Shown here piece by piece: positions 1,244-25,715 of a DNA stretch of 64,000 bases. This DNA is from Trypethelium eluteriae (taxonomy: Eukaryota). Where the stretch lies: positions 1 through 64,000 of the forward strand of contig JAVECL010000024.1 in assembly GCA_051942245.1 (NCBI GenBank). The letters are read 5' to 3'. Numbering within the stretch: position 1 is the first letter of the stretch; each line of letters starts with the position of its first letter. The notes below the pieces were generated by a model, which worked only from the letters and a program-made list of their open reading frames with translations, had not been told where the DNA came from and searched no databases. The translations under genes were made by a program, and so were the position numbers.

Positions 1244-2663
1244 CTAAGAGCGAGTAACTTGAATGTGGCCAATGGCTTCGATCAAATGTGGAATGAAGCG
1301 CTCAGGGTTCTCAGTCGCTGGAAAATGTCCTAATCCTGGCATAGACTTATGCTTCGCCCCGGGAATTTTGTCAGCCGTGGCCTGGGACATGGATGGGGTA
1401 TTACTCCAGTCGTATTCGCCGTTAAGCATAAAGACTGGGCATTTTTTGGTATCGATGCTTGCCATACGTGAGCGACCATCCCAGCCCCCGAAGTAGAAGT
1501 CTAAGTCGCCGTGAAACATGCCATAGGCTTGTGCACTATAGGTGTGCCAAACAAGTTGCTTATTGGGAAGAGGAGCAGTGGGACTCATCATCTGGGCAGT
1601 GTCAATCTGCGTTGTATCGTGTCATTCAAGACGGACTGCCACTCACTCCGTAGATCCATTCCGGGTTGAAAAGTGACTGGTTTACATAAGGCGATCGGTC
1701 GTACCATTGCCGCTCCATGTTGAGATATTCACTCCTAATTTATTTTAGCCACTCTTACTGTAGAAGAGCTTGGGCTCATGCTCACCCCTGGAGAGGTATA
1801 GAACCACCAGCACCAACTTCCTCATGTCGGATAGCTACGGCCAGACATACTTGACCTGCCATCGAGGCACCACAAATGATAGGCTTGTCCAATCCGAGTG
1901 CCTTGACAAAAGAGGCGATGCACCCTACGTAGCTTTCTTCGGTATTCGTGTGAGCACCTGGGTAATAGCTGCGAGATGGGAAATTCCTTCCATGACCAGG
2001 CAAATCGAAAGCGTACATCTTACACTTCTCCAGCATCCGAGAGTCATTCATGACGCCATGATATTGTCTTGAATCGGAGCCAGCAGTATGAAGGAAGACA
2101 ATTGGTTGAGAACCACTGCCGGACGTTTCGTAGAAGACCTTGCATTTTCCCCAGATAGGGGCTGAGATGTAGACATACCGGCCCACAAGATGATCTTCAG
2201 TAGGCTCTTGGTAAGAATCTTCTTGCATAGGACCGCAATAGGCATCATGAATGAGCTCGAGAGTGCGCCTCCATACGTGGGTCCAATGCGCGAAGGCATT
2301 CTGATCACCTTGCACTTCAATACCCCTTTGCTTGATGTTCATCCCAAACATTCCCCAATAGCTCTGATGCGGCGGGGTAGGTACCGGTTTGAAATGCTCT
2401 TCCCATTGCTGGGATAAGGCTGAGAGTGTGAATTGGGCTGCTGATGGCTTGCCTGTAGACACCTCTGCTTTGCCATTTGTCATTGTTATAAGTAAGGTAC
2501 TATTTGAGCCACTGCTCTTGATGCCGAATGTTGCCGGAGCGTTAATAGCATTGGACGTAGTGAAGGCTCTGAGCTGTCCATCTGACTGGAGAAGCTCTTT
2601 GAATTTTGGAAGAGATGCGCTAAGGGCTTGTGGAAAATCATCCCAAGTACCTAGAGAGCCCAT
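1244..2663 (-). CDS. Alpha/beta hydrolase with an extra ~140-aa N-terminal domain (possibly SCP2-like); 3 exons
   Basis: VFLHTAGSDSRQY, AFDLPGHG, nucleophile elbow GASMAG, LNGEYDW, GLGHFP; two GT-AG introns (about 1735-1786 and 1592-1645) join ORFs 1782..2663 and 1244..1591. Confidence 0.85.
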
Positions 2664-2822
2664 GATGATGGAAAATTACGGGGGGCCAGTAATGAGATGG
2701 ATGGTGAAAATAGATTTTTGACATCACTTCATGGATGAGGTTGCTTTTAAAGAGCAGTATACAAACCTTTCAGAGCTATCATCGGACCTATGGGTCTGCC
2801 AATCTCAAATCGGCCACCTTTT

Positions 2823-2956
2823 GCGGGGTACTAAGGCGATCAGTTGCAAGGCGTCTTGTAGCTTGAGCTCCAAAGGCGGAGCCAATGGAGTTAACCATCC
2901 TTCGGTTCGTGGTTTATGTGCGGGGACCAGTTACAATGGAAGTTGCTGAAGCGGAG
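2823..2956. promoter_or_regulatory. Four CreA/Mig1-type SYGGRG sites upstream of the 1244..2663 hydrolase
   Basis: GCGGGG 2823, GCGGAG 2876, GCGGGG 2920 and GCGGAG 2951, all within 134 bp. Confidence 0.4.
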
Positions 2957-3308
2957 GCTTGATTTGCGTCGTCAGAGGCTTCAGCCTTGTCAAGAACCCG
3001 ACGTCTGATGTGGCGAATAGCGACGTTGCCGGTTGGGAATTTTCACTTGGTACAGTCACGTCGAGTTGGGAAGTAGTACGAGCAGGGTACGAGCCTAGAG
3101 TAGAGGTAGAAGCAGACGGGAGTAACTCGCGGTAGCACGTGACTAGTGCGTGTTTGGTCCGGGATTTCATCCTGGTTCCCGGGTATGAGATGCAGCAATG
3201 AATTCTCATTCTGATATCTCAACCGCTGCTCAATTGCTGCAGTACTTCAAATTCCGTTGAGCCTTTTGCCCGGCTCTGGGATAGCTAACTGATTGTCTAC
3301 CAGTTAGG

Positions 3309-4422
3309 TTACCTCCCTATGATGGACTCAAGGAAATCAAATCCTTTCCGCTGAAGATCCCACGTTCTCGACCCCTTACTCATTTTGCCTGCAAAGGTAT
3401 GTCCCTCACCTGGCACATCGATGAATTGGCTTCGAACCCCTTCCTCCTCGAGGCGTCTGCATAGCGTTCGACTCAAAAAAGGAGGAACCATCTTGTCTTC
3501 GAGCCCATGAACAATACACGTTGGAGGGAACTCTGGAGCAACATTTAAACATGCGTCAATCTTCTTCCAATCCTTGGAAGGATAGCAAACATCCAAAAGT
3601 GTGCCTTTCGCGATATGCGTCATGGTAAATGCAGTTCGTGGACCCATTGGTGGCGGCTTTCCATCTTCTGTTTGGCCCTCCAGTGACAGTCCGCCCTGGA
3701 TTGGCACGGGCTTCTCTTCGTAGACTTGGCTCATGAAGGACTCGGAGCATTCCGGTGGCTTCATAAACGTCAGAGACTGGGTCCAGAAAGAATCTTGGAA
3801 GTTGGTGGCGCCGTAAAGATCTAAGATGGCTACAACTGGACGTTTAACATCGAAACCCTGCTCAGTATCTTTGAGTCAGCTGTAACGCATCTCAAGACCT
3901 TCTCTTCAGTTTTACAGGTAAGCTACGATAGGCTAAGAACAAGATACATACCAGGGTCAGAGCCAAAGTACCACCGGACGATGTGCCAAAGGTCACAACT
4001 CTTTTGTCATCTACCTTGAAGGGCGAAGTAGCTCCGCTCGAGGCCAGTTCCTCATCTAACCCGCCTGCATAAATCCAGTCAAGCAAGTCCCGGCAGTCCG
4101 AGACAGGACCTTGCAGTATATCAACTTGCGGGCAAAGGCGATGTTCGGGAACCACAACAATCCAGCCGCGTTCCTGACAGTCTTCGATCTGGTCTGCGGA
4201 CACCATTCCCGAATGGCCCAAACAAAAAGCCCCTCCATGGATGCCAATGACTATGCTGTCGTTAGATACAATTCTTCATTTTCTGTGCAGATACTACATT
4301 CCTACTGGAACTTTCGATGTTTGATGGGTAGTATTTGCAGGTAAGTACACATCAGTGTATATAATGCAATCTTCGACTCTTTTATAGATGCACCGTAAAT
4401 GAGGACGCAATGAAGGCGCCAT
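3309..4422 (-). CDS. HGG-type (Abhydrolase_3/BD-FAE-like) esterase; 3 exons
   Basis: ATG at 4422 (MAPSLRPHLRCIYKRVEDCIIYTDVYLP); IHGGAF oxyanion motif, HRLCPQVDILQGPVSD, GTSSGG nucleophile, PPTCIVHGLEDKMVP, VPGEGHTF; introns near 4255-4300 (exact sites uncertain) and 3860-3951. Confidence 0.85.
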
Positions 4423-4915
4423 GGTTGGCTGAGAATAAAGCCCTACTTAGGAATATAGAACAGCTCAAAAGTCTGCTCCAAGGAGCTAACCACCCATTAA
4501 GGTGACCCCCGAAGCAATTTTATTACTTGCTCGTGTCAAATCCTGCCGAGAATCAGAGTATTTACATGCTCGATTAGACCAAAGTTCCAAGCGCGTCCAT
4601 CTCGGGTCTTGCGGGGGCGGGGGCCGTGGAAGCACCGCGGACCCACAGCCTCCACACGAGTCGTCGCCATTTTCTTTTGATGAGCTTGGCTGCCGCTCAA
4701 ATATGCCGCCTAGTATTAAAAGTAGGGTTCTATTCATGTTTCGTAGAAGCGCAGATGGCGTTGCTCGGCCGTCGACGCGGTGGGAACCGAACATATATAA
4801 GATAGCTGCGAGGTAGGCTAACTGCACAGCAATAATTCCCCAATCGAATCATTTCTTCACGCGGATACCATTGATTGTTTGAAGACAAGAGTCCTGACTA
4901 GCCTGCCTCACGAAA

Positions 4916-6033
4916 ATGGCAAATGGTACCGCTTCAGTTCCCCGATTGCAACAGCCACCAAAGGATGGAGGGAGCTACGTGATTCCGCAATTAGAGGGTG
5001 AAATGATAACGATACCGGGCAGCAAGGGCGTTTTCCGGGTCTTAGCATCCTCTCTCCAGACTGGCGGAGCGATGTCTGTATTCACGAGCGGAGGAGTCCT
5101 GGCAGACGCGCCGGGATTTCACCACCACAACGAAGCTCATGATATCTTCATTGTCACCAAAGGATATATGAAAATTTGGAACGGAGATCGTTGCAAGATC
5201 CTTGGTCCAGGTGATTTCACATCAGTGCCTCCAGTATGTCCAAGGAAACCTCGACACAATCTATCACAGAAGAAATTAATTGTCTTACTCAGGGAGTCAT
5301 TCATAATCCCCACACCCTGGGCCCTCACTCCGAAAGCTTCGGTGTGATCACTCCCGGTGACTGGCTCGACTTCTTTCGCTATATAGGCGAGTCTTATGAC
5401 GGCATTGTTGTCCCCGAATCCGACTCTCGGAATATTTTGGAGCACTTGATTCCTAAAGTCAAAGCCGCAGCAGGCAAATACGATGTCGTCTTCCATCCGG
5501 AGCATAAAGGCTGTGCTGTCAGCGAATGGACCACTGAGGACGAAGTCATCCCGGACACCACCAAGTCATACTATCTGAGGGCCAATACCGGTCCGCGGTG
5601 GATCCTCGGCGGTGTGATTTCACGTCCATTTATCACCACGAAGCAATGCGATGGCAAATTTGCCATTTCCAGTATTGAGTCTTCTTCGGTGCACAAGGCT
5701 TCTTGTCCGTTCCAACGCAAACTGACATTTCCTCGCACACATCATTGCTTTGCTGTGCAAGAGGGCGTGCTGGACGTCGTTGTTGGAGATGCTTCGTCAT
5801 GTCGTGTTGCGGAAGGAGAGGCCATATTCGTGCCGGCCGGTATTCCCTTTCAGCTGAACTTCTCGAGCAAGTTCGTGAGAGTCTGGACTTTCACAACTGG
5901 CGATGGGATAGAGTCCTTGATTCATCATGCCGGAATACCATTTGGTAGCTATGTGCTTCCAGACAAGTCGAAGCCTTGGGAGGAAAGGCAGTTGTTGGAA
6001 GCATGCCAAAAATTCTCCGTGCAGGTGTCATGA
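4916..6033 (+). CDS. Quercetin 2,3-dioxygenase-like bicupin; 2 exons
   Basis: Cupin metal motif GFHHHNEAHDIF...GDFTSVPPGVIHNP, YYLRANTGPRW, second cupin GEAIFVPAG; intron 5234..5292 (GTATGT...CAG). Confidence 0.85.
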
Positions 6034-6498: not shown

Positions 6499-9400
6499 CT
6501 ACCATCTCCTCTTCTTTGGCCGTTCAGCCCACTGCCTTTGTCTCCACGCCGCCAGACCAGTCACTGAGAAGAGTCCTGCTCCAACGATGAAACAAGGGCC
6601 CATCCATAGCTGAGCTCCAAGGAAATTGTTTGATGCTCCTGATGCAGCAGTAGCGACCGGTCCCGAAATGAGAGCGCCAACCCCTGCCGCAGCGTAAACC
6701 ATGCCCATTCGCGTGCCCAAGACGGCAAGGGAAGGGCAGACGTATGGAAGCACGACTGCAGGGAGGGTTGCTAACATGCCGCTAGCAAAGCCATAGAAGA
6801 CGAGAAAGCCAACGAAGCCACCAAGATTGTGAACTGCGATCCATGAGAACGCGAGGATGCCGCTGAAAAGCTGAGCGGTGAAGAGAAGGGCTTCCCCGCC
6901 AATGAAGTCGGACATGAAGGCCGGCACTGTGCGGCCAAAGAATTGAGCTGCATTGATGACGGCTACGAGATAGAAAGCTGTACTTTGGCTTGCGTGGAGC
7001 TCCGATGTTGCATACACAGTCGTGAGAAAGAAGGGTACGAGGAAAGCGCAAAAGATGAAGAAGGCAGCAGCGATGAAGAATACCATGGGGAGCTCCTTGA
7101 ATGCCGACATGTCCAAAAGTTGCCGTGTTGGCTTCTTTATGTGATCGAGCGGGCGGATGATGAGCGCGGCAACCGCAAGAGTGATCAGTGCAATAAACCC
7201 CATGATACGTGTTGCCCACGCAAAATCAAGCTCGACTAGGAGTCTTCGAAAGACGATGGGGTAGATGACGCCTCCTACAGAGCCACCTGCAGTAGCAAGT
7301 CCGAGAGCCAGTCCCCTTCTATCTTTGAAATAGAGAGGCATCAGTGCTACGCTTGGAATGTATAATAACCCACAACAGAGGCCAGTTAAAATGCCTTGTG
7401 TAAGCATGATTTGATAATATTGTACTGAAAGGCTGAGCATCATTTGGGAGAACACTACTCCCACACCGGCAATGATGAGGATGAGCTTGAAGTATCCTTT
7501 ATCGAAGAGTGGTCCGGAAAAAGCACCAACGACTAAAAGAAGGGCTGCCTGTACGGTTCCGATCCAAGCGATTGAAGACGACGAAAAGTTCTTGAGCACA
7601 CTGGTCTCGTAGTATGCTTGATATATGCCAAAGCTGTTTACGAGACCCCAATTGTTGACGTTAATTAAGAATGCCGCGAGTACTTGAAGCCAGGCTGTGA
7701 TACCACCGTCGGGTGGTTTTAAAGAGATGAGAAAGTCTTCATCTATGAGTGTTGGGTCGCCTTTCTCGGGTAGCTCCCAAGAGACAGTGGGCCTTAGTGG
7801 CGGAGCTAAGGTGGCTGTCCGAGAGATTGACGTCGGTGCCATACTTTTCACGGATTTAGCTTTCAGCGACTCGTCGGATGACTTCCGCGCGTCAGGAACG
7901 AGCGTTTCCTTGGAGTCTGCACCATGTCTGGGCCACTTTCGCGCAGCTAGCAGCTGTCGTCCATTCGATTTTCGAGAAGATCGGTGGGGCAAGTCCCAAG
8001 TTGCGAGTTGAAAAACCTGCTGCATTTGAATCCACGTTTCTACTTCCTCTTCGTCGGAGTCGTAGCCGTTCTGGGTAGGAGGCTCCTCCGAGAGAAGGAA
8101 CGACACTAATCTTTCAACCGACGGATGCTCGTAGACTTGCTTTGGCTCGATGCTGTTTTGGCCCTGAACGGAGTTGATGGCACGGACAAGATTAATGAGT
8201 TGAAGTAAATCCATTCCATTCTGGAAGAAATCATCTTCACTGCAAAGCTCTCGGATCCCCAATTCGAACCGAATAAAGTGCAGAATTGAAGAATACGCGG
8301 CTGATCGGGAGTTTAGATCGAGTTTGACTCTAGAGTCTTTCAGATGAGCATCATATTCATCGAATAGATGTTCGATCTCTTCTTTATAAATGGCATTTCC
8401 TCGTTGGCGTTGGATCGTTCCTTTACCTGCACGTGGAAGAGGCTTTTCTGGACTTGTAAAGAAGATTAGATCGCTGACTATTCGCCCGTGTTTGACACAT
8501 GTTTCGTTCGCGCGCTCCACGTAAGGCCAGATAAGGGCCTTCAAGCTCTTCACCTCGACTTGGAATATCGGTGATCTTTTTGCTTCAACAAGAAGCGCGG
8601 CCTGGAATTTACCCTGCCCAACGATCAAGCATCCAGTCACGTCGGGACTACTTGTAATTATACCTTCCATTGTAACGGGATTCAATTTTTCACCGTTGCT
8701 GAACACAATGACGTCGTCCAACCGGCTCTCATATTTCCAGAGGTCTGGCTCTGTTGGGTGCTTCGAGAACAAATCTTTCGTGTGATACTCTTGCAAATCT
8801 GGGAACGTAACGAAAATCGCTTGCATGAGATCAAGGTGCGGCCTTCGAACAATGACCAATTCATGGAGGCCCCCATCCACCTCACGAAATTCCAAGCCAG
8901 CCCATTCGGCATTGAATTTAAAATAGTGCCAAAATTGAGGGTCCTTCCTGATGAGAGGTAAAGCAAAGAATTCTGTTGCGCCGAGAGAAGAATTCAGTGA
9001 TACGTCGTCAATAAGGATATCGCCAGTAGCTTTCGAGAGCGGTCCACCTGCGTAAGTGAGACCACGTAGCCTTCGTAGGTTTGAGAGAAAAGATTTATTC
9101 TTAGCCAGCTCAACAATGATGGATGGAGGGATGGCACTGTACTCGATCTGGCCATGGATATGGACTGCGTCGATAAGCTCAGCTGTCATTGGCCCCACTG
9201 GCGGAAGGACTATCGTGCTATCGCAGTATATTACTGTAGCAATCGAGTATATGACACCGGCCACGTGAAAGGGAGGGAATGGTGCTAGCAATCTCATGTT
9301 GCCGCACCGTTCTGCAACTTCATTGCCGAAAAGCCAATTTGCGTCCATTGTTGTCGGAACCCCATGTCGAATTGGAACAATCTTTGGAATGCCAGTAGAG

Positions 9401-9991
9401 CCAGATGTATGGAGAAGAAGCCAAGGCTTCATCCGATATTCTTCGAACGACTTCGTAAACGGCCAGTGCTCGACCGGCGCTTCATTAAGCAATTCCGCGA
9501 GCTCTGGTATGATCAGGTGCGTGATTGGGTACTCTTTAAGAATGGATCCAACAATTGGTGGAGCATCCGCTGGGGAAATGAATTTGGTCGCGCCAGCCTC
9601 ATTTAGTAACGATAGATGAGCATCCATGCTGTTTCTCGGAGAAGGGAAGAACATCTGCCGCAAAGTCAGGAGTGGAGGTGATTTGAAGGATTACACTCAC
9701 GACATGGCCAGTCTTGACAGCAGCCATACATATTATTTGATAACGGAGATCGCTATGTCCAAGATATACCAAAGGCTCAAAACTTGAAGAGGTTCCACAA
9801 TTTTCTTTGATCCATAGTGCACAGCGATTGATTGCATTCGCAAAGACGCGGTAAGAAATATTTCGAAAGCCATCTTCCGCGTTCTTAGAACGGGGTATAG
9901 AGGCATATGGTCTTTGATGATCGGCTTCGGCGCGCTCATCTATTAATGCAGAAAGTAGTCGTTTGCCATACGGGAGAGAAGACTCTGCCAT
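6499..9991 (-). CDS. NRPS-like adenylation + thiolation domains fused to an MCT/Mch-family MFS transporter (about 1148 aa); 2 exons
   Basis: Exon 1 9701..9991, intron 9655..9700 (GTGAGT...GCAG), exon 2 6499..9654 stop-free. A-domain motifs LHTSGSTGIPK, YAGGPL, GATE, YHTKDLF, RLDDVIVFSNGEKLNP, LPRAGKGT. T-like DDFFQNGMDLLQL. MFS start PPDGGITAWLQVLAAFLINVNNWGLVNSFGIYQAYY followed by about 12 hydrophobic segments. Confidence 0.85.
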
Positions 9992-10759: not shown

Positions 10760-11977
10760 TTAAAACGCCCATTGCTGCATCCAGAGATCCATCCATTCAA
10801 AACTGACCTTGTTAAGTGCTCTCAATGTCGGACTATACTGAACTGTCTGTTTTGTTTCCAGGGTGACTGAGCGTGCCTTTGGGAACCGCACGGCCTTATC
10901 GGCCAAATTACTGTAAAACTCGAAGAGTTTTGCTGCTGGATTCAGAGCGTAGTCGGGTGTTTCTGACATGTTTTTCTGGAGCGCGGTGACCCATTCTGTA
11001 AATTCTACAATGGCCACGTCGCCGCCCAGATGCTTGACAATAGCCGGTAGCAAAGAGTGCCAAGAACAGGTCCGCGGGTTGACGATGTGATACACTGCAT
11101 TTGAAGAGGTCTGACTCTTCGACCGCCTCTGCGAAAGCTCCATTTGGCAAGGTAGAAGATCCACGACAACCTGCGCGAGCAAATCGACGGGGATCCAGTC
11201 AATTGTTTCCAGTGGTCCAAGAGAGCTTGGCAATAGCTTCAAGTGTTTGGAGGATGCAATGAGACTCGGCAGCCACTCCTGCTTGTTCCATTGGCCATTC
11301 TGCCCATGCAATACAGGTCCGCCAACTTGACCGACACGACAAATCGCAGTCTTGACGCCAGTTGTTTTGCTCGCTTCGGCAAGAAGACGTTCGCTTACAA
11401 GCTTCGACTGTCCATAGCCCATACTTGCCACGCGCCAGTCCTCGATAATCTTTTCTGGCACTCTTTCCCGAGATCCCGGTGTTGCGCCCCATCTTGCTGC
11501 GACACTGATGGAGGAGATGAAAAAGAAGGTCACATCGTAAGTGCAGCGGGTTGCGAAGTCGAGAAGCTGCTTTACGCCACGGATCTGGGGTTCGAATGAT
11601 GTGAAAGCGCGATTGAAGTCTACCGGCCATGCATTATGTAATATGTGTGTCGCTTCGCTTGTTAAAGAGCTGTAGACAAGCTCTGATAGTCCCAGAAAGT
11701 CCTTTGTCGTGTCACATTCAAGGAACTCGATTTTGGGAGGACCCAATTCCGTAGAAAGACCGCGGGCGCGATGTGACTTCCATTGGCGCTGTTCTGCATC
11801 GCTCGACCGATTGAGACATATTACTCGTTCAACTTTCGAGCTGCGTACGAGGGTATCTAAAAGATAGCTCCCAAGAGATCCGGTCGAGCCAGTCAGAATA
11901 ATCGTCATCCGAGACTTTGTAGGTTTCTCCGGTGGCGCGTTCACCTTCTTTGTTCCGAATGATGTGAAAGATGGCAT
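10760..11977 (-). CDS. Stand-alone thioester reductase (NAD_binding_4 / R domain), 405 aa
   Basis: Rossmann IILTGSTGSLGSYLL, HNAWPVDF, FISSIS, catalytic GYGQSK (YxxxK), CRVGQVGGP, WNKQEWLPSLIASS, DWIPVD; in-frame TAA four codons upstream of the ATG. Confidence 0.88.
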   Translation of the reverse strand: MPSFTSFGTKKVNAPPEKPTKSRMTIILTGSTGSLGSYLLDTLVRSSKVERVICLNRSSDAEQRQWKSHRARGLSTELGPPKIEFLECDTTKDFLGLSELVYSSLTSEATHILHNAWPVDFNRAFTSFEPQIRGVKQLLDFATRCTYDVTFFFISSISVAARWGATPGSRERVPEKIIEDWRVASMGYGQSKLVSERLLAEASKTTGVKTAICRVGQVGGPVLHGQNGQWNKQEWLPSLIASSKHLKLLPSSLGPLETIDWIPVDLLAQVVVDLLPCQMELSQRRSKSQTSSNAVYHIVNPRTCSWHSLLPAIVKHLGGDVAIVEFTEWVTALQKNMSETPDYALNPAAKLFEFYSNLADKAVRFPKARSVTLETKQTVQYSPTLRALNKVSFEWMDLWMQQWAF

Positions 11978-14061
11978 TGCGTGCTGTTAGAGTAGTCTCC
12001 GATCTTTTTGACGAAATCATAGCATTATTTTCCGTGAAAGGGGTACGACCGAGTTTGAAGCCAGATTGAAGTCTGAAACAACCCTGTAAGAAAACGGTGG
12101 ATCGTCGCGATTTGATTTAGTGTTACACATTCATGATCCATACTGTATCTGTTGACCGACTGAGCGACGCACGCGAAGTGTGGTGCTCGTTGGTGACGTC
12201 GACGGATGAAAGTTGCATCTTGCTGATTGCTATTTAGAGCCACTTTTCAGCGGCTGCAGCACGGGTCAGGTGTGGCGGCAAGGCATGTGGTTTAGCTTCC
12301 CGCCGGCTCTTTTCAGCTCTTTTGTTGGTGACTGCAGAGCTCTGCTTGTTGGGGCCATGATACTTAGATACGATTTTCTAAGGGCGAAGCTATGCGTAGC
12401 GTCCTATGACACCCTTTTCGAGCAACAGTCTCTTTGTCTCGGCGCATCCGCTATTCGTCAAAATATACACTGGTTGCAAAGATGACGGTGCATTCGTGTA
12501 GCAAAGATGTGTATACCCAAGGTGCTGGACAGTGGGAGAGGAAGAAGTCCGGGAGGCAGATGCAGGCGCCGGCAAGATGCGGCAGATGGCTACGATAGCA
12601 CGTGCCCTACCGTACCAATTGAGGCTGAGGGGCCACCCGTAGAGTAAATATCGTATTGTACGCGAAGAATTTGTGCAGCTTCCCACGTTTGCCTTGCTCT
12701 CGGTCATCCCTTCCAAGGTTGGCGATACAGTTGTTGGCATCAACGGTGAGTGTCGCGAAACAACAAGGGGAACATGCTGGCAGAGTGCTGCAATTGTCTT
12801 CAGCGGGTATGCTTGTCTAATCCCAGAGGTGAGCTACTGGTGCGGTGAAATAGGTCATCGGCGACTCCGAGAGATTATGCCTGATGTTGAGGGCATGAAG
12901 GACGCGATCCGGCCATCGGTTTTCGCACGGAAATCCCAGGCTTATTTGCGCAATAAGCTACAAACAGCCAGAATTGTGCACCAAATAGCGGCAGAGTGTC
13001 GGGAACCGTCACTGTAAGTCTTTCATCTTACCGCTTTTCAACGAACGGATTTCTCCCGATCCGGGACAGTACATTATCATGTATGTAGTATGTGTCGTGC
13101 AAGGGTACCCCAGAGTCAAGGTCTCAAAAGAAGCGATGAAAGTTGCTGTGTCGTAGGTTAAGTAATTAGATTTCTAATAATTTAGTCTATCTAGCTGGTG
13201 TGTAAGAAGTGCGCAGGTAGAGGTACGGTAGTTTTAGTCCTCGTTCTCGGTTCGTCTACGATAGCGGCGACCCTCGACTCTCCCTTCAACTACCTCTATA
13301 GCTACTTGCCCGAGTACGGCCGACATGAAGGTCCAAAATTTCTGCACTTTAGACAGACTCGGCTCGCTTTGCCTCACAAGCGATCTCTTCTCCTGGCGAT
13401 TGACGTCGAGTCAGGAGCCTAACGCAAAAAAGCGCAAGAACAACCGGCATGGAGTCGGCAGGAAAAAACCGCACACAGCCTTTGCGTGCCTCCACGTCCA
13501 CTGCAATTCAAGGTCAGACTTGAGATTGGACTGGCAAGAAGTCAGCAGCTTGCAGCCTGACTACGTAGTTCTCCCTCCTCGGCCGAGACTACATTTGTAT
13601 TACTGTGGTCCGTCAGCCGCAGATCCCCATGACACATCCTTGAAATCATCCCAAGGCTGTGGAACGCGGCCCGGGGCACTGCACTTACAATGCAATGCAG
13701 CGCAGCACTTCACCTATTGACCTAGTCCGATCCACTGAGCTCGACATAGCTGTGTGGACCCAACGATTACAGATTACAGCGCCGTCCCTAGTCCTTGGTC
13801 CTTTGGGCTCTGCTAGCGGGTCCACGGCCCACTTCTCTCCATGGCTTGCCAGTGCATTTAGGTAAGGTAAGATTGCGTATGAGCGTTAGAGAGAGTAGAG
13901 CTATTGGCAGCTCTAGACAGAGAGTCATTTATACGATGTCGCCAACATCGAATGCATTACATCGCTACTTTCAAGACTCGATCGCTCAGATCGCCTCACA
14001 GAAATATCTCCATTAATCCTTTCTTGAGTACTCCGTAAAGAAACTGCGTCTGCCCCTCACA

Positions 14062-15425
14062 ATGTCTTCTGCTCTGTTTCTCTGTAAGGAACGAATAGCT
14101 CCGTGTCAGCATATTCGCAACTACCCCCGGGCTACTGCAGGCACCCAGGAGGATATTTTTCATCTCGCGATAAAGCAATACATACCATTGGGCAATCTCA
14201 ATCCATCTCCCGGAGATGTTACAATCGTTGCAGCGCATGCTAATGGATACACTAAAGAGCTGTATGAACCATTGTGGGATGATTTACTCCTTCAAAGCAA
14301 GAACAACGGTACACTTCGCATCCGTAGTATTTGGATTGCGGATGTTTCCAACTCAGGAGCCAGCGGAGTCATGAATGGGTCCCAACTCGGCAATGATTGT
14401 AATAGCAAAGATCTAGCGATATCCAGGGACCATTACTAACCGAGCATCCAGTATCATTTTTCGACCATTCGCGAGATCTTTTGCATATGATCAACCAATT
14501 CCGTGACCAGATGCCCCGCCCACTGGTTGGACTTGGGCACAGTATGGGCGGTACGAGCCTTGTCAATCTTGCGACTATGCATCCTCGGTTACTAACAAGT
14601 GTAATACTCATCGACCCTATCGTACTCCCAGCTCCTTCGAAAGGTGGTCGTAACCTTCTCCCGGCCTACGCCGTCATCCATAAGCGAGATAAATGGCCAT
14701 CCCGTAAGGCTGCCGAGTCTTACCATTGTCGGAACAAATTCTTCCAATCCTGGGATCCGCGCGTCCTGAGCCTCTTTCTCGAGTTTGGGATTCGGAAGGC
14801 TCCGTCCCCTACTTCCCCTACCAATACGTCATCGGACTCAGAGTCTGTTATACTCACGACTTCCAAGTATCAAGAGGCCCTTGGCCACGTCCGCGCCGCA
14901 TATCCTCCACGCAACCAACCCTTTACTGGTACCCCGCCTCCACGTAAAACCCATCCAGATGTTTTCCGCGATCGTCGCCTTGAAGTCCCCTTCTACCGTC
15001 CAGAACCCTTCCTCGCCTTCACCCAGATCCCGTATCTCTTGCCCACCGTGCTCTACGTTACTCCGGCCTCCTCTCCCGTCACCACGCCCGATGCACGCGC
15101 TGCCTGTATCAGCACGATTGGGACGGGTCTGGGCGGAAATGGAGGCGTGAAGGAGGGTGCGGTGAAAGAGGTTGCACTGCCAAACTCAGGGCATTTCGTG
15201 CCATTTGAGAAGCCGACGGCGGTTGCGGAAGTGGTGGCGTCATGGTTGGATGAGCGGCTGGCCGTTTGGCGGAAGGACGAAGAAGAGGAGAGGAGAGCAT
15301 GGGCGGAGGTCAAGGCGGAGGATAAGAGGAAGGTTGATGAGGATTGGATGTTCTGGATGGAGCAATTTGCGGGGAAAGGGGGTCAGGAAGAAAGGCCGAA
15401 GACTGTTTTACAGTCTAAGCTATAA
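14062..15425 (+). CDS. Abhydrolase_6 family hydrolase (MpaH/Lpx1-like) with C-terminal PTS1 (SKL); 2 exons
   Basis: HANGYTKELYEPLWDDL, IRSIWIAD, DHSRDLLHMINQFR, GHSMGG, GHFVPFE; ends QSKL*; intron 14399..14451. Confidence 0.85.
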
Positions 15426-17424: not shown

Positions 17425-20400
17425 CTAGGCTTTTGCTGAAGCGAATCCCGCGATCACTCTAATCGTTCTAGCCTCTGGCAGCTCTCCGTCGGTCCAATCC
17501 ACTTCCTTAAAGCCTGCCTCCATCATACACCTCTGCCATCGATCCTCACTAGTGACTGCATGCTCGCGCCCGTCCTCAAACAACCACCATCCTTCGAACA
17601 GCCCGACTGCGATATCCAGCCAAAACATATTATGAGTTATCTCCACAAGAGTCAGGACACCATCGTCGCGCAAGAGTCGACGAAGCATTGTCAAGGAACG
17701 AGTTAGGTTCCGTGTCGCATGGATACAGTTGGTGGAGATGATCACGTGGAATGAGTTGAGCCACGATGGCTTGGGCTCAGTCTCAATGTCCAGGACGGAA
17801 AACTCCATGTTGGGGACATTCTTGAACGTGCGTTTGGCTTGCGCCACCAGCGATGCTGAGAGATCTGTGAAAACATAGCGGAAGGGGATTCCGAGTTTCT
17901 GGAGATGTTCGACAATGTATTTGGTGGTGCCACCAGTGCCTGCTCCGACTTCGAGGATTGAAAATTTGCCCGGTGTCTTAGGCCTGGAAAGGGCTCTTGC
18001 CAGGAATTCACCAAGAGCGAGAGTAGCGGAGCGTACAAGCGGCCAGTTCTCGTAAACGTCGTCAAGGTTTTGCTTGTTCGCTTTATCGCCGAAAACGAGC
18101 TGCAATCCGTCTTTGGCGCCGGTCAAACACAGTGCCAGCTCGGATCCTGTTACTTGAACAAGCTTGTGGACGTTAGCGTGCTGAGGATACTCTACAAGAA
18201 TTTGGGTAAAAATGCTGCTGGCTGGTGTAGGATCCACGGGTTTCGATGTTCGGATAAATTCTCCCTGATCATTGCATTTTATGAGCTTGGCGTCTTCAAG
18301 AACGCGGAAGAGCTGGCGGACGAGCTGCTTGTGTCTTGGTAAGTGGGAAATGCTTGGTACGACGTCATTGGCCTTGAGCTGTGCCATGTCACGTCCCAAT
18401 ACAGCAAAGCCTTCGACGACGTAAGCAAGAACAAGACTTGCCTGACGAGGATATGCGTGCTCCCAGAATCCAGCAGCCTTGGTTTCGACAGCGAAGCGGT
18501 CGTACTCAAATTTACTCTCTACGAATGCCTCGTGGGGTCGAATCGTTCCTGGCAGAGACTGCGTGCTCTCCCCAGGAGGTTGTATGTTTTTGGCCTCACC
18601 CGATCCCTGAACTGTTGCGAGATTCGCCTCATCGGGTCCTGTCCTGTCAGACCCAATACCTAAAACAGAGTCAATGTGGGTACAGATTGCCCGCACATTG
18701 GGGAAGAAAAGGATTTTGTTCAGATCAATCTCGATTCCAAACGAAGCTTGAAGGTCATTCAAGAGTTCCATAACAACGAGCGAGTCAATCCCGAGATCTT
18801 CAAGCGTGGAGTCATCACTGATTTCGTCCGGAGGAATGTCTGTTACACGGTGCAAAATTTCTCTCAGCTCCTGTCTCTTACTACCTGCGCGAGGTTCTAA
18901 GGGTTGTGATCGATCTGACACTGGCTCTGGAGGCGTAAATTGCGATTGAGCTGGAGTTGAAGCTCCAGAGTCATCTTTCGGTGCATCCACGCTATTCGAT
19001 ATACCGGTGTTATTTGCACTCTGCAACGCCTGGGCTAGAACAGACATCGATGTCCTCGTGAATTCAAATCCTAGGAAGGCAATCGCTACTCTCTCCTCCT
19101 TTGCATCGAAGATGTAAACGTCGCATTCGGTGCGCTGATCGGTGTCCTCTGTCAGGAGCGCATAAGCCAACCAATCTCCAGCATGGATGTCAAAGCTACC
19201 GCTGGTAACGATCTGCTTTATACCTAAGCATACGAGGACCTCTTCGGTGCTTGGGTGGCAAAAATAATTGACAAGAATGCCAGCAAACTGCATGAGGCTG
19301 TCGATCACCGGTGTATCGTATAAGTTTTCGCTGGAGTCGAGCCGGGGATTGACTTTTGCGACTACTCGTCCTGCTGCTTCATGACCCATGCAGGAAATGC
19401 TTTTGATACCTTGGTACATTTCGTCAAAATGCACTAACCGTTGGATGGCCTGGTAAATGTGCTTCCCCTGCATCTTCTCTCCATCAGTAGCATTGAGGAT
19501 GGAGAGACACCGATTAAATCCAATTAAAGAACCATAACGCTTCATCTTTTGACCAAGTGCAGGATCACCGCGTCTCTTGAGTCCAACCTGACCCGTTGTG
19601 TGGATAGCATCATTGGTTCTGCCATCCTTGGTTCGGCTCGATACCACAAAAGACCATAGAAGCTGCTCGTCGCCTACGCAGCTCAGCGTGAAGAAGATAT
19701 CTTTGTTTTCGTCAAGTCCAATTGGGCTCCTCATCTGCAGCGATTTGATCGAGGTCACATGGGTCTCGTATGTTGCCGACGGGACTAACGCCATTGCAGT
19801 ACGCGAAAGAAGCTCAATGTACAGCGAGACGGGAGCAAGGGCCTGTCTCGAGGTAATGTGACCTTTCAGTAGCATCTTGTAACGCTCACTCTGAGGATCA
19901 ACAAGGAAGACAGCAACTTTCTTGCTTTCGTCTTGGAAGCCAATAAAGGAAAAGAACTCATGGATCAGACGAGGCTGCGCAAATGTATCTGACTCCACGG
20001 CAGGCTTTTCTTCGACTCGATCAACAAATGGAAGCCAGTGTTTGGTCTTTTCAAATTGATACGGAGGCACGTTCTTGTGATCATATTGGTGTCTCTGAAG
20101 GCGATGGAAAGGCCAAAATCGGAGCGCATAGCCAGTTTTACACAACGCAACGGTCAATTCTGCCAGCGCATTCATCACCTCGGGCGACGATAGGACAGAA
20201 GGACGGTATCTTTGTGGTGATGCAGACTTGGAACCCATGCAGTTTTGGACCAGCGAGATTACAGAAGTTCTTTGGCCAGCTTCCAACCACGTGCAGTCAC
20301 CAAACCTCTCAGTCAGCCTACCAATCGCTTCTTTAAAAAAGACGGGCTTTCTAGTATGTTCCGGAATCAACCAGGGCCCTGGATCTGTATTGGTGGACCC

Positions 20401-23400
20401 TTCGGTGCTCAGCTCTATGTGGACTTTCGGCTTCTCTCATCTGATACTAGAAGCCAGGCCGTAAAGATCCGGAAGTAGTGGGTCGGTGAACGCAGAATGA
20501 AAACCGTGTGTGACCTTCAACCGTTTAGCAAGAACAGATTGGTTGAGCTTTGGGTCGTTTGCCACAAAATCATCAAGGGATGAAACAGCTTTCTCGGACC
20601 CTACTATAACATGGTTCAACGGGTGGTTGAAGCAAGCTATCTCGAGCTTGTCCTGATTCTCACCGTCGGCATTGAGAGAGGCAAGAATACTGGAGGTAGT
20701 CTCGAAGTCGGCTTGTAAAGAGATCATGGATCCTCGCTCAGCACCCCATGAGCTGGTAATCAGCTCTGCACGCCGAACAACCAATATAAGGGCATCGGAG
20801 AGCGACAGACATCCGCATATACACAATGCAGTCAGCTGCCCGAAGCTATGGCCAACCACTGCTTTAATGTCCAGTCCACAATCAATCCAGCATTTAGCAG
20901 AAGAATACTGAATGGCAAAGAGACTCGCGTGAAGGGTGGGCACATGAGAAATGGTCGAGCGCTGAAAAATAGCGGGATACAGGCTTCGTTGACCCAACAA
21001 GCGCAAGTAGGTTTCGCATTGATCGAGATGGAATCGCAAAATAGCAGCGTTTCTAAAGAGCTCTTCTGACAAACCCACGTAATCGCTTTCTTGGCCTCCA
21101 AAGACCATGATGACCGAGGGAGGGTTTGGTGATGTGGCGTCCGGAACAGACTCAGGATTTCTAGCAGTCTCTTCAAGTTTCTTCTCCAAATCATCGAGGT
21201 CCGTCACCGTTTCTATGAGGGTGTAAGGCAGTGCTTGATTTACCCGATCCGCAAGGTTAAACAGCAGAGAAGAAAGCAGAAATCTGGAATCAGTACAAGT
21301 GGCTCGCTCCGATCTTATAAACTCCAGAAGCTTCCTGGAGTACATCGACAAGCTTTTCCTTGAAGCAGCGGACAAAATAAGCGGTTGCTTCGATATGACG
21401 ACGGGTGTTCGCTTAGTGTCACCAGTTAGCTTCGGAGGAGCCTGACGCACGGCAACAGCAGCATTGCTTCCAGCTGCACCATAGCTGTTGATGCAGGCTA
21501 GTCGCGAGGATCCTTGCCATGACAGACTCTTTTGCGGGATCTCCATCTTGTCAGGCTCAAGCGCGGGAATCTTCGGGTTGAGGGAGTTGAAGTTGGCTTG
21601 ACCCAGGATTGAACACTTCTGCATCATGAGGAGAACCTTGATCAAACCCGCTACCCCCGATGAAGCCTCTGTATGACCAATATGGCCTTTGACAGAACCA
21701 AAATATAGTGTTTCTTTGCGATCAGGCCCTGAGAACCCCTCTCGAATACTCTGACACTCAATTGGGTCGCCAATTTGGGTGCCTGCGTTACCGACGAAGA
21801 TAAGCTTCTATACGCACTGGGATACTATACAAGAACAGCTTACCGGTGCCGTGTGCCTCCACGTATGATACTTGCGATGGTGCTGCATTTGCCATGTGCA
21901 AGACATTGCTATAAACCCTCGTCTGTGACGTTGAGCATGGAACGGTGATGTGGGCATCGTTCAAATTCTGGTTAACCGAGGAGCCGACGATAACTCCTAG
22001 GACATTGTCATGCTCTTCCAGAGCAGCTGATAGTGATTTGAGCACAACGACTCCAACGCCTTCGCCTCTACAGTAACCGTCAGCTGAAGCATCAAAGGGT
22101 TTACAAGCGCCCGTAGGGCTTAGAAACCCGGCGGCAGCTAGGTTTTGGTAGTCAAAAGGGCTAGTGAAGATATTAGTCCCACCCGCAAGGGCTCGGGTAC
22201 ATTCTCCGCTTTGGATTGCTCGGCACGCAGCATTGATTGCAACAAGTGAAGATGAACATGCTGTATCAACCGTCATAGCAGGGCCTGTCAATCCAAATTG
22301 ATGGCTGATTCGTCCACTGAAAAAGGCTCGGGAAGTACCCAGCATCGAATATGCTGTTGGTGGATGACATACGACATTGTCATAATAATTATTCGCGACG
22401 GCGCCAAGGTAACAGCCGTAGTCTGTTGGCACAGACCGAGAACCTGATCCTGACCCAAAGAATCCAGCAGATTCGAGTGTTTCATACGCTACCTCAAGCA
22501 AGACGCGCAGCTCAGGATCCCATGAAACTGCCTCGCGCGTTGTCTTTTTAAAGAAGCGATGATCAAAAGCATCGGGATCGTCAATGAAATTGCCCCAGAA
22601 CTGGGTCTCAGGACGATCCGCAATACGTTTACTGTTGAGGATCAATCGGGTAGGAGGTTTCTGTACTGTGGAGACACCGGAGGCCAAGAGCTCCCAAAAC
22701 CTTTCGATAGAATCGGCTCCAGGAAAGCGGCAGGCCATGCCAACGACTGCGATCGAATGGGGAGGATATTGACCATTCAAGTCACGTACCGTCCCAGAAG
22801 ACTGCGGAACACCATTGGTCCCATTGGCGGCCTTTGCCATTGGCGGTGTGGACTTTGCATGTCCATTCGATATTCGTCGGGCAAGACTAAATGGAATGAT
22901 ACCTTCTTCACAACCCAGGACCACCGTCGTCGGATTCTCTGTTGGAAAGTCGTCTAGTGATGCTTTCACTGTTCCATACCAATCTGATGCGTGAAGTAGG
23001 ATACTTTCAAGGGCGACCTTAAAGACTTCATCGCCATGTCCAATTGGCTGACCAGTAGCATTGCGACGTAACGATACCTTCAACCTAGCAGGATCGGGGA
23101 ACTGAAATCCATCCGTTGCGCGACAAAACGCATCCAGGTGCTCCACGGCAGTCGAATAAACCGCGGGGCAGTGATAACGAGCGGTAATGCTGACAGGTTT
23201 GACGCGGAAGCTAGCCTTGCGAAATGACATTGCCAGTTCTGCTCTGAAGTTGGCTGATGTCGTGACCGTTGCACATGTGTCATCAGTGATGCACGAAACA
23301 TATGTCTATTCTTGTCATCAGTAATGGATTCAGGGGAGACAACTAACGCTAGGTGCCTTATGAGACTCACACCCGGATAGCGATTTGAGATGGTGTCAAC

Positions 23401-24015
23401 GTCGTCCCTTGTCAAATCTTCCTTGCTCCATCGGACTGACAACGTACAGGCCAGATCTGGTGGGTCAGCATACATACTGTCGCAGTCTACGTATGCGCCG
23501 ATGCACATAGCTAAACGGATACTAATGGCCACCATATCCCCCAAGTCCTGAGTGCTTCCAGAGAAAGCAATAGCCGCTGCAGTGAGGAAGCCAGCGCAGA
23601 ACCCCTGCACATCATAATGCCTCCCACCTTCAAGCACAGACTGGTACCATGTGTCACCTCCATCCTCGTGAAGATACTGTAAGAATTGTCCTATCTGAAG
23701 AATCGCTGTCAGAGGCAAAGCGATAATGCTTGGTAGAGTTTCTGTAGAGATTCCCAGATCTCCAGAGTCCAGCCAGTGTCTCAGACAATCGAGCTTGTCA
23801 AGTCCAGGCACCCTGCTCAATTTTTCGTCCCTGCTGGCGAGTCGTTGGAAGACATTTGGGAAATCTTTAACGGTGGGTAATAGTCTCTCAGCCATGCCAT
23901 CGCGCACTAAAACCTGATGAATCCGTCTCACATCGCCTGGAGGTGGTAACTGAGCTTGAGGTCCGCAAAGGATCAAAAGCGGAGGTCGTGATTCTGCGCT
24001 GTTCGTTGCCGTCAT
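17425..24015 (-). pseudogene. Non-reducing PKS SAT-KS-AT-PT-ACP-CMeT (2154 codons) with one in-frame TGA at 20437-20439; possibly pseudogenised
   Basis: SAT GFCAG and RYH; KS DTACSSS, EAHGTG, GHIGHTEASSG; AT GHSFG, THGFHS; PT GHITS, DSLMQF; ACP LGIDSL; CMeT LEVGAGTGG, TNCIHAT. Introns 23306..23370 and 21783..21843. ORFs 20437..21645 and 17425..20370 share a frame, and the TGA is the only interruption. Confidence 0.8.
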
Positions 24016-24899: not shown

Positions 24900-25715
24900 T
24901 CAGTCGGTGACACCGGTCTCTTTACCGAGAGCTAGAATTTGAGCTGCGACGACGGCAACGTCTTTCGTCTTGATCGGTACACGATGGTCTCCGTCCCACT
25001 CAACCACACGAGTGGTTCCAGGCTTGCAGTAGTCCTTAAGCAGCTGGCGATGCAATGCAAGGCCGGGATCCTTCATACCATGCACATGGAGAGTAGGCAA
25101 GCACAGTACATGCTCGTCACCCTGCATGAAAGGGCCGCTGACGTTAGCGAAAGCGCCCGTTGTGAGTTCGTTAGCATCGACAAGGGCAAGCGAGTCGGTA
25201 ACCTCAACATCGAGCGACAGTAGTGGCGCGCGGCCTGCCAGAAGCACAGCAAACTTGAACTTGGAGCCAGCCATGGTCGCGCCGAGCTTTGTCGTCCGAA
25301 TCTGTTGTCGCAAGAGCAGGCTGGCACAGACTTTAGCACCTTGACTGAAGCCCATGAGTGCAACCCAGTCCCCTGTTCCCCCCTGTTGGTCGTCGCGGTC
25401 CATGGCTTGGTGCAGGTTCTCATCAATTTTTTCGATCATTGCATCAGGTCCTGGGTCTGGATGCTCGGGTGACCAGCGAAGCCAACGGCGGAATGTTTGG
25501 ACGTGTTGGAAAGTGGGGATCATGCCTGGGCCGGGGGTTGAGGGAAACGGGCCATCTGCGAAGCAGAAGCGGAATTTGTGTCCAAGGTGTTGGATTAGAG
25601 TACGGCATTGGAGCGAGAAGACTTCGGCAGTAACGCCGCCTCCGTGCAGGCAAAGAATCCGTGGAAGGTGTAGCGTGGAACCCGGCTGCGACGAATTGAG
25701 CGGTGAAGAAGGCAT
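24900..25715 (-). CDS. FSH1-family serine hydrolase (CitA/LovG-like)
   Basis: PRILCLHGGG, GFSQGA nucleophile, PTLHVHGMKDPG, WDGDHRVP; intronless; immediately upstream of the PKS on the same strand. Confidence 0.9.
   Translation of the reverse strand: MPSSPLNSSQPGSTLHLPRILCLHGGGVTAEVFSLQCRTLIQHLGHKFRFCFADGPFPSTPGPGMIPTFQHVQTFRRWLRWSPEHPDPGPDAMIEKIDENLHQAMDRDDQQGGTGDWVALMGFSQGAKVCASLLLRQQIRTTKLGATMAGSKFKFAVLLAGRAPLLSLDVEVTDSLALVDANELTTGAFANVSGPFMQGDEHVLCLPTLHVHGMKDPGLALHRQLLKDYCKPGTTRVVEWDGDHRVPIKTKDVAVVAAQILALGKETGVTD

Follow-up and report, generated by a model that had tools for sequence, protein, structure and literature searches.

A stand-alone thioester reductase beside an adenylating transporter fusion: a probable two-subunit carboxylic acid reductase in Trypethelium eluteriae and related fungi

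Introduction

The window analyzed here is a stretch of 64,000 nucleotides from the genome of the fungus Trypethelium eluteriae (contig JAVECL010000024.1, assembly GCA_051942245.1), and the subject of this report is a pair of genes within it. One gene encodes a thioester reductase (R) that stands alone; the other encodes its partner, A-T-MFS, in which an adenylation (A) domain and a phosphopantetheine-bearing carrier (T) domain are fused to a transporter of the major facilitator superfamily (MFS). We consider it probable, at roughly 0.7, that R is the reductase subunit of a two-subunit, transporter-tethered fungal carboxylic acid reductase (CAR). The pair is real and conserved, and as a variant of the CAR family it is apparently undescribed; a literature search, whose coverage excluded most subscription papers and supplements, found no description of A-T-MFS together with R. 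Coordinates of all features are collected in Table 1.

In the mechanism proposed, A-T-MFS would sit in the membrane by way of its MFS domain, while its A domain would adenylate a carboxylic acid, probably an aromatic one, and load it onto the phosphopantetheine arm of T. An amphipathic helix behind T, consisting of an acidic run and the pattern WxxMxxxF, would hold the free R protein beside T by filling the groove of R that an equivalent helix occupies in intact enzymes with A, T and R in one chain (A-T-R). R with NADPH would then release the aldehyde through Ser156, Tyr188 and Lys192, and perhaps carry it on to the alcohol, and the adjoining transporter would supply the acid or remove the product.

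A Stand-Alone Reductase of the CAR Type

The R gene is an intron-less frame of 405 codons and a stop, located 768 bp upstream of the A-T-MFS start codon (position 9991) and on the same strand. An earlier note on this DNA had described it as an R-only gene with intact TGSTGSLG and YGQSK motifs at this distance, and translation and Pfam searches agree; the Rossmann motif, which the note placed about 25 residues after the ATG, begins at residue 29 in a region whose β-strand starts at residue 25, and YGQSK occupies residues 188–192. The motifs HNAWPVDF, CRVGQVGGP and WNKQEWLPSLIASSKHL are found in R as well. Pfam assigns residues 28–270 to NAD_binding_4 (PF07993; E = 4e-36), its matches in the 405-residue protein being to thioester-reductase and short-chain dehydrogenase/reductase (SDR) families only and none to an A, T or polyketide synthase (PKS) domain.

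The closest solved sequence is the R domain of the Neurospora CAR, NcCAR (PDB 8AEP; 38% identity, E = 2e-88), and the same entry is the top Foldseek match (E = 1.6e-33, TM-score 0.81) of a structural model of R with a predicted local distance difference test (pLDDT) score of 90, which indicates the extended-SDR fold of thioester reductases. Ser156, Tyr188, Lys192, Gln217 and Glu234 correspond to residues tabulated for NcCAR in the available part of its description (PMC10168641), where the roles of the catalytic Ser815, Tyr844 and Lys848 are set out. All five vary little or not at all among the clade members of R, the catalytic positions being S/T, Y and K in 68/68 members each. By this homology to NcCAR, the pair would convert an acid to an aldehyde.

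The earlier note had judged the motifs of R closer to those of A-T-R enzymes, which are similar to nonribosomal peptide synthetases (NRPS-like), than to those of nonreducing (NR) PKSs, and this judgment is sustained by more than the nearest structure. The R domains of PKSs in the same genome are 34–35% identical to R and carry HNAWPMS and GYxxAK where R has HNAWPVDF and GYGQSK. A length-unbiased profile search returned, among its best 150 matches, R-only proteins in 12 of the top 13 places and A-T-R proteins next, with none longer than 1169 amino acids, and no R of this clade is fused to the acyl carrier protein (ACP) and MT domains of a PKS. As to whether R groups with PKS R domains, the best trees keep them apart, but a tree in which three NR-PKS R domains unite with the R clade was not rejected by the approximately unbiased (AU) test (p = 0.26, with long branches). 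Assignment of R to the NRPS-like/CAR type is supported by these sequence comparisons. A separate observation concerns locus L061 (8681–11131), where a highly reducing PKS ends in an R domain that has the NRPS-like motif HNAWPVDF and groups among A-T-R reductases, not NR-PKS R domains.

Some R-only database entries outside the R clade are fragments of longer genes, and the acceptor-like CTAACAG ahead of the R start codon, from which the earlier note had left room for an upstream exon, could mark R as the last exon or remnant of such a gene. The heptamer is present, but a coding exon to go with it was not found: it contains an in-frame TAA, and none of four donor-like sites within 1.5 kb has an ATG-led frame joining in phase 0, the phase tested. 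Between positions 11978 and 17400, 246 queries brought up no homologous sequence, whether of A, of T or of another kind (one weak off-target match, E = 7e-4). Predicted starts lie 28–31 residues before the Rossmann motif in four close relatives and within 7 in 14, and at loci L042 and L057 the A gene points away from R. That R is a piece of a longer gene is most improbable; a coding exon upstream is unlikely from the sequence, and CTAACAG would represent at most an intron of the 5′ untranslated region on current evidence.

Two Clades That Occur Together

Within a tree built from 239 R domains, R of the window belongs to a clade of 68 (FastTree support 1.0), which was recovered with support of 98/96 by IQ-TREE from 43 sequences (18 clade members, 22 A-T-R and 3 PKS R domains). 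Since 67 of the 68 members are R-only and the partner ends in MFS, the A, T and R domains do not form one polypeptide here. The R gene of this clade is not a local fragment; it is stand-alone throughout the clade. Two motifs distinguish these proteins, DW[RK]xAxxGYG (65/68 members) and D[KR]xx[RH]FP (56/68), each found in 0/171 R domains outside. A tree of 144 A domains places the partner in a clade of 64, of which 58 have MFS, five lack it and one has R; none of the 80 A-domain proteins outside this clade has MFS.

Members of the two clades occur together. Co-location was read from equal sizes of the longest contigs reported for each protein, with the best 120 of 945 A matches available for comparison. 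By this measure, 25 of the 62 R proteins of the clade agree in contig size with a listed A-domain match, as against 0/60 other R matches, and the proportion is 25/45 for contigs of at least 6 kb and 14/19 for those of at least 40 kb; two further R/A pairs were matched through cluster members. Wherever both accessions are visible the genes are neighbors (8/8 pairs, from five named fungi; Bathelium, Septoria and Coniocarpon twice each, Zasmidium and Lecanicillium once), seven being consecutive and one having a single gene between, so that the synteny which the earlier note proposed to look for in other genomes is indeed present. Paired R and A distances correlate (r = 0.86 for 23 pairs, with 0/2000 permutations as high), and the nearest neighbor is identical in R and A for 16 of the 23, which demonstrates co-inheritance, not binding.

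The pair was seen among Dothideomycetes, Arthoniomycetes and Sordariomycetes, and A-T-MFS was observed in Leotiomycetes and Eurotiomycetes as well; the named relatives of the window, at 76–99% identity, are Trypetheliales. A scan of metagenomes gave 80 loci, most of them intact A-T-R genes and five of them clade loci; of these five only L048 was long enough to provide context, L023 and L038 being too short to contain a partner gene. Gene order varies, from tandem in the window to divergent in L048, L042 and L057, and because of these divergent loci the label "order-permuted" in the earlier note describes something incidental.

The Partner Protein and Its Linker Helix

The A-T-MFS gene is interrupted by one GT-AG intron of 46 nt (9700–9655), and its second exon encodes 1051 amino acids with AMP-binding and MFS_1 domains, the MFS appearing complete. 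The transporter is of the monocarboxylate-porter type, with 12 membrane helices predicted from a structure model, as against seven segments in a hydropathy scan at the chosen cut-off; an atlas search with the T-MFS part returned generic MFS clusters only, all under 0.9. The closest solved relatives of the A domain are 4-chlorobenzoate-CoA ligases (a weak match, E = 1e-5) and those of the MFS domain are MCT8, MCT2, MCT10 and MCT1. Together they point loosely to an aromatic carboxylate, whose conversion may be coupled to its transport. The phosphopantetheine-bearing serine of T is retained in partners without an R of their own (of 64 aligned relatives, 62 have Ser, one Thr and one Pro), implying that the acyl group is normally bound to T.

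In intact A-T-R enzymes, a helix whose ancestral pattern was matched in 39 of 53 lies between T and R. The A-T-MFS proteins retain this pre-R helix and an acidic run ahead of it, with an invariant Met641 and with Trp638 in 62/64, and WxxM follows T in 61 of 62 partners vs. 0/54 A-T-R proteins. Four clade A-T proteins (P0147 from Pleurostoma, P0160, P0161 and P0164) keep the WxxM helix and have little or no MFS; either the MFS has been lost or the gene calls are truncated.

A complex was modeled from R and residues 545–660 of P0242, a relative used as a stand-in for the partner in the window. It scored 0.81 in three runs, the best of three controls scoring 0.02; the runs had at least 58% of their contacts in common, and the partner pLDDT was at least 69. 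The mark applied to this score was reached by 51/78 solved vs. 2/108 mismatched microbial pairs and by 39/65 vs. 2/126 eukaryotic ones. Confident contacts are predicted only for helix 634–655 on residues 124–143 and 181–207 of R, including W638/M641 against W181/R182, and when the whole partner is modeled by itself, this helix is free-standing and flanked by segments with pLDDT below 50. The helix behind T is a predicted R-binding site, on which R may physically dock. A further idea, that the acidic run ahead of the helix serves as a binding site for the basic DKAVRFP motif of R, was unsupported, the motif lying outside the confident predicted interface.

Membership in one pathway might instead require no stable complex. 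R could take a diffusible thioester (of coenzyme A, CoA, or of pantetheine) or a free aldehyde, or meet T transiently, leaving the conserved helix with another job. According to the available text of PMC10168641, the isolated NcCAR R domain reduces the N-acetylcysteamine thioester benzoyl-SNAc and accepts aldehydes and ketones, and the complex model may reflect likeness only. Such independence of R is unlikely given the conserved serine of T and the placement at the predicted interface of both the invariant Met and the Trp that is new to the clade.

Observations That Weigh Against a Docked Enzyme

Several observations count against a two-subunit CAR in which R docks on A-T-MFS. The serine of T is Leu in the genome of the window itself, and the MFS is partial in 21 and absent in two of the 64 aligned partners. 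The partner chain in the complex model was P0242, 1049/1051 identical to the A-T-MFS exon 2 of the window, and not the window protein. Residues of R at the interface are mostly common to A-T-R enzymes, 1 of 24 being clade-specific by our own cut-off, and the favorable score may stem from likeness to intact T-R folds and cannot separate members of the family; because the two pieces of a divided gene may reach the mark by resembling solved T-R structures, the model shows that the parts fit, not that they bind. Contig matching is indirect and gave no match for 35 of the 62 R proteins of the clade (17 of these lie on contigs below 6 kb, and the comparison covered the best 120 of 945 A matches), and the correlation of distances partly reflects common species history. 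Finally, P0158 of Dothistroma septosporum is annotated as an intact A-T-R protein, the only one in either clade and a member of both. It is nested beside a Zasmidium pair and joined exactly where the linker helix, which is absent, should start, and is either a gene-model join or a secondary re-fusion.

Origin of the Pair

The earlier note had proposed that an ancestral A-T-R gene was split at the T/R junction. Fission of one ancestral gene is plausible from the sequences, and a cut is indicated, although slightly past the junction, because the linker helix remained with T; the trees do not establish descent of both halves from a single ancestor, the tree uniting the R clade with PKS R domains having passed the AU test. 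The separate A and R phylogenies that the note had suggested gave matching clades but different sister groups. That of the A clade (6 proteins, support 0.98) and that of the R clade (11 proteins, 0.91) have no common member among 103 A-T-R proteins, and closeness in A is weakly correlated with closeness in R (Spearman 0.25). Both results favor a history in which the pair is real and arose otherwise, an A-T protein that had exchanged its R for MFS having recruited an R fragment from another A-T-R paralogue; today's mechanism would be the same, history alone differing. We regard recruitment as rather unlikely, considering that insertion of MFS behind the linker helix would yield both products in one event, that the A and R clades are equally deep (mean identity 49% each), and that midpoint rooting may have produced the R sister group through long-branch attraction.

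The Neighboring Polyketide Synthase

An NR-PKS, in which Pfam detected no R or thioesterase (TE) domain, lies 5.4 kb from R, and among the substrates considered in the earlier note was its ACP-bound aryl thioester, which R acting in trans would release as an aldehyde. This arrangement has a bacterial parallel in stand-alone thioester reductases beside synthases (Zmn14, in the available text of PMC3547906), and the joint tree of the R clade and PKS R domains kept by the AU test is in its favor, as opposed to the differing motifs and the profile search described above. Among the relatives listed, the pair and the PKS do not travel together. Relatives of the PKS were drawn from the best 120 of 1134, of which 118 had a contig size; none of the 118 shares a contig, matched by size, with any R or A match, despite 20 clade R proteins on contigs of at least 30 kb, in a comparison from which the PKS of the window itself was absent, leaving it no positive control, and which would overlook PKSs of other types close to the pair. 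At L048 the pair is present with no PKS in 14.7 kb.

The PKS also has a likelier release enzyme beside it, the serine hydrolase FSH1. FSH1-type hydrolases release fungal polyketides, a role for which our literature search found no supporting paper. FSH1 is in one gene model with the PKS in two of the ten closest PKSs among the matches listed; these models (P0251 and P0256, from Lachnellula) attach FSH1 either to the N-terminus of a close PKS relative or to its body, whether by true fusion or by a model join. Direct release of the PKS product by R is very unlikely, because no listed PKS relative shares contigs with the pair and the closest relatives carry FSH1. If the PKS is involved at all, release of an acid followed by CAR reduction fits better, by analogy with Aspergillus terreus, in which ATEG_03630 reduces the aryl acid released by the neighboring NR-PKS ATEG_03629 (PMC4274970, as far as its available text describes). 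In the genome of the window, a PKS-derived acid would reach the A domain as free acid released by FSH1.

Other Genes and the State of This Genome

Table 1. Positions in the window of the gene pair, its motifs and neighboring genes.
Feature	Positions	Strand	Basis
Stand-alone CAR-type thioester reductase (R) gene, 405 aa	10760..11977	-	translation, Pfam, structure match, clade of 68
Rossmann NADPH-binding motif TGSTGSLG, residues 29–36; β-strand from 25	11870..11893	-	conserved in R clade
Catalytic Ser156, Tyr188, Lys192; clade motif DWR (180–182) between	11402..11512	-	alignment to NcCAR Ser815, Tyr844, Lys848
Clade-specific C-terminal motif DKAVRFP (360–366)	10880..10900	-	56/68 clade vs. 0/171 outside
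CTAACAG, acceptor-like, six bases before R ATG	11984..11990	-	sequence
A-T-MFS fusion gene, proposed partner subunit, exons 9991–9701 + 9654–6499	6499..9991	-	domain matches, model
Phosphopantetheine site of T: Leu (TTA) here, Ser in relatives	8206..8208	-	alignment of 64 relatives
Post-T helix EVETWIQMQQVFQLATWDLPHR, candidate docking element for R	7981..8046	-	W 62/64, M 64/64 aligned partners
NR-PKS SAT-KS-AT-(PT)-ACP-MT, no release domain, not conserved with pair	17425..24015	-	Pfam, relatives
FSH1 serine hydrolase, likelier PKS release enzyme	24900..25715	-	62% to FSH1 part of P0251
α/β hydrolase ending SKL, possible accessory gene	14062..15425	+	39% homologue between the two genes of the pair in L048

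The neighbors of the pair in L048 are, by names read from their sequences, a Zn2Cys6-type regulator, a hydrolase, an SDR and a P450. The hydrolase (6726–8199, ending AKI) is 39–40% identical to that of the window and 35% and 26% identical to two other copies in this genome, which suggests orthology with the former; a homologue was found in one of the 80 metagenome loci, L048, the sole long clade locus. The SKL and AKI ends resemble peroxisomal signals. In Septoria, an A-T-MFS model (P0149/P0246) ends in an SDR 38% identical to the one next to R in L048 (11143–12186), and in one subclade the SDR may be a third member that takes aldehyde to alcohol. Downstream of A-T-MFS, positions 1244–6033 of the window contain two α/β hydrolase genes and a two-cupin gene, none of which was found in the 80 metagenome loci. 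Elsewhere in this genome, two other A-domain frames (G000:C137:32768-34072 and G000:C128:24023-25327; 440 and 463 amino acids) end without an in-frame T or R, either because introns interrupt them or because they too stand alone.

The PKS has an in-frame TGA (20439–20437) in its AT domain, at a position where three relatives have a conserved Trp. With both the T serine and the PKS mutated, the pathway may be dead in this genome. A Ser codon occupies the T site in sequencing run X1, which has zero differences from the window within the R gene, and in P0242; X1 and P0242 may be one isolate. The Leu codon and the TGA are either private mutations or errors, and the reading at the level of the family is unaffected by them.

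Comparison with Known Systems

The nearest known systems are the type III fungal CARs, such as NcCAR (8AEP; PMC10168641) and ATEG_03630 of A. terreus (PMC4274970), A-T-R proteins that, in the available accounts, have the same R fold and the same Ser/Tyr/Lys, Gln and Glu residues, and A and T domains equal in type to those of A-T-MFS. Here, unlike in those enzymes, R is separate, MFS takes its place, and the helix is left on T with a new WxxM. Among bacteria, Zmn14 of the zeamine cluster (PMC3547906) is likewise an R-only protein, of ~410 amino acids, encoded beside a synthase and proposed to act in trans; it differs in being tied to a synthase of the polyunsaturated fatty acid type, with no transporter fusion or retained helix in the parts described. 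CrmA, an isocyanide synthase-NRPS-like protein mainly of Dothideomycetes (PMC9381783), is likewise a fungal A-T protein with a fused transporter domain, but the available account gives it isocyanide synthase and transferase domains, no reductase and no separate subunit, and a putative role for the transporter. Another CAR variant with an altered domain set is the glycine betaine reductase ATRR (A-T-R-R; 10.1101/559534), whose T and R2 domains still function in vitro once excised as proteins of their own; as far as it is described there, it is a single polypeptide with an extra SDR and no transporter.

Implications

Tentatively, and at somewhat less than even odds, the pair may be read as a CAR that was split by insertion of MFS, its linker helix becoming a WxxM docking domain, so that activation and reduction of an acid would be coupled directly to transport of the substrate or aldehyde in an arrangement widespread in ascomycetes. 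Two small constructs would then make it possible to test the coupling of enzyme and transporter. Split CARs would have in the helix a natural docking tag that is portable, and aldehyde biocatalysis a simple means of combining A-T parts with R parts. For annotation, the family carries a warning that R-only genes of this kind are not fragments and that such "MFS transporters" are enzymes. CARs have been described as single A-T-R chains, and a natural split would show how a linker turns into a docking domain.
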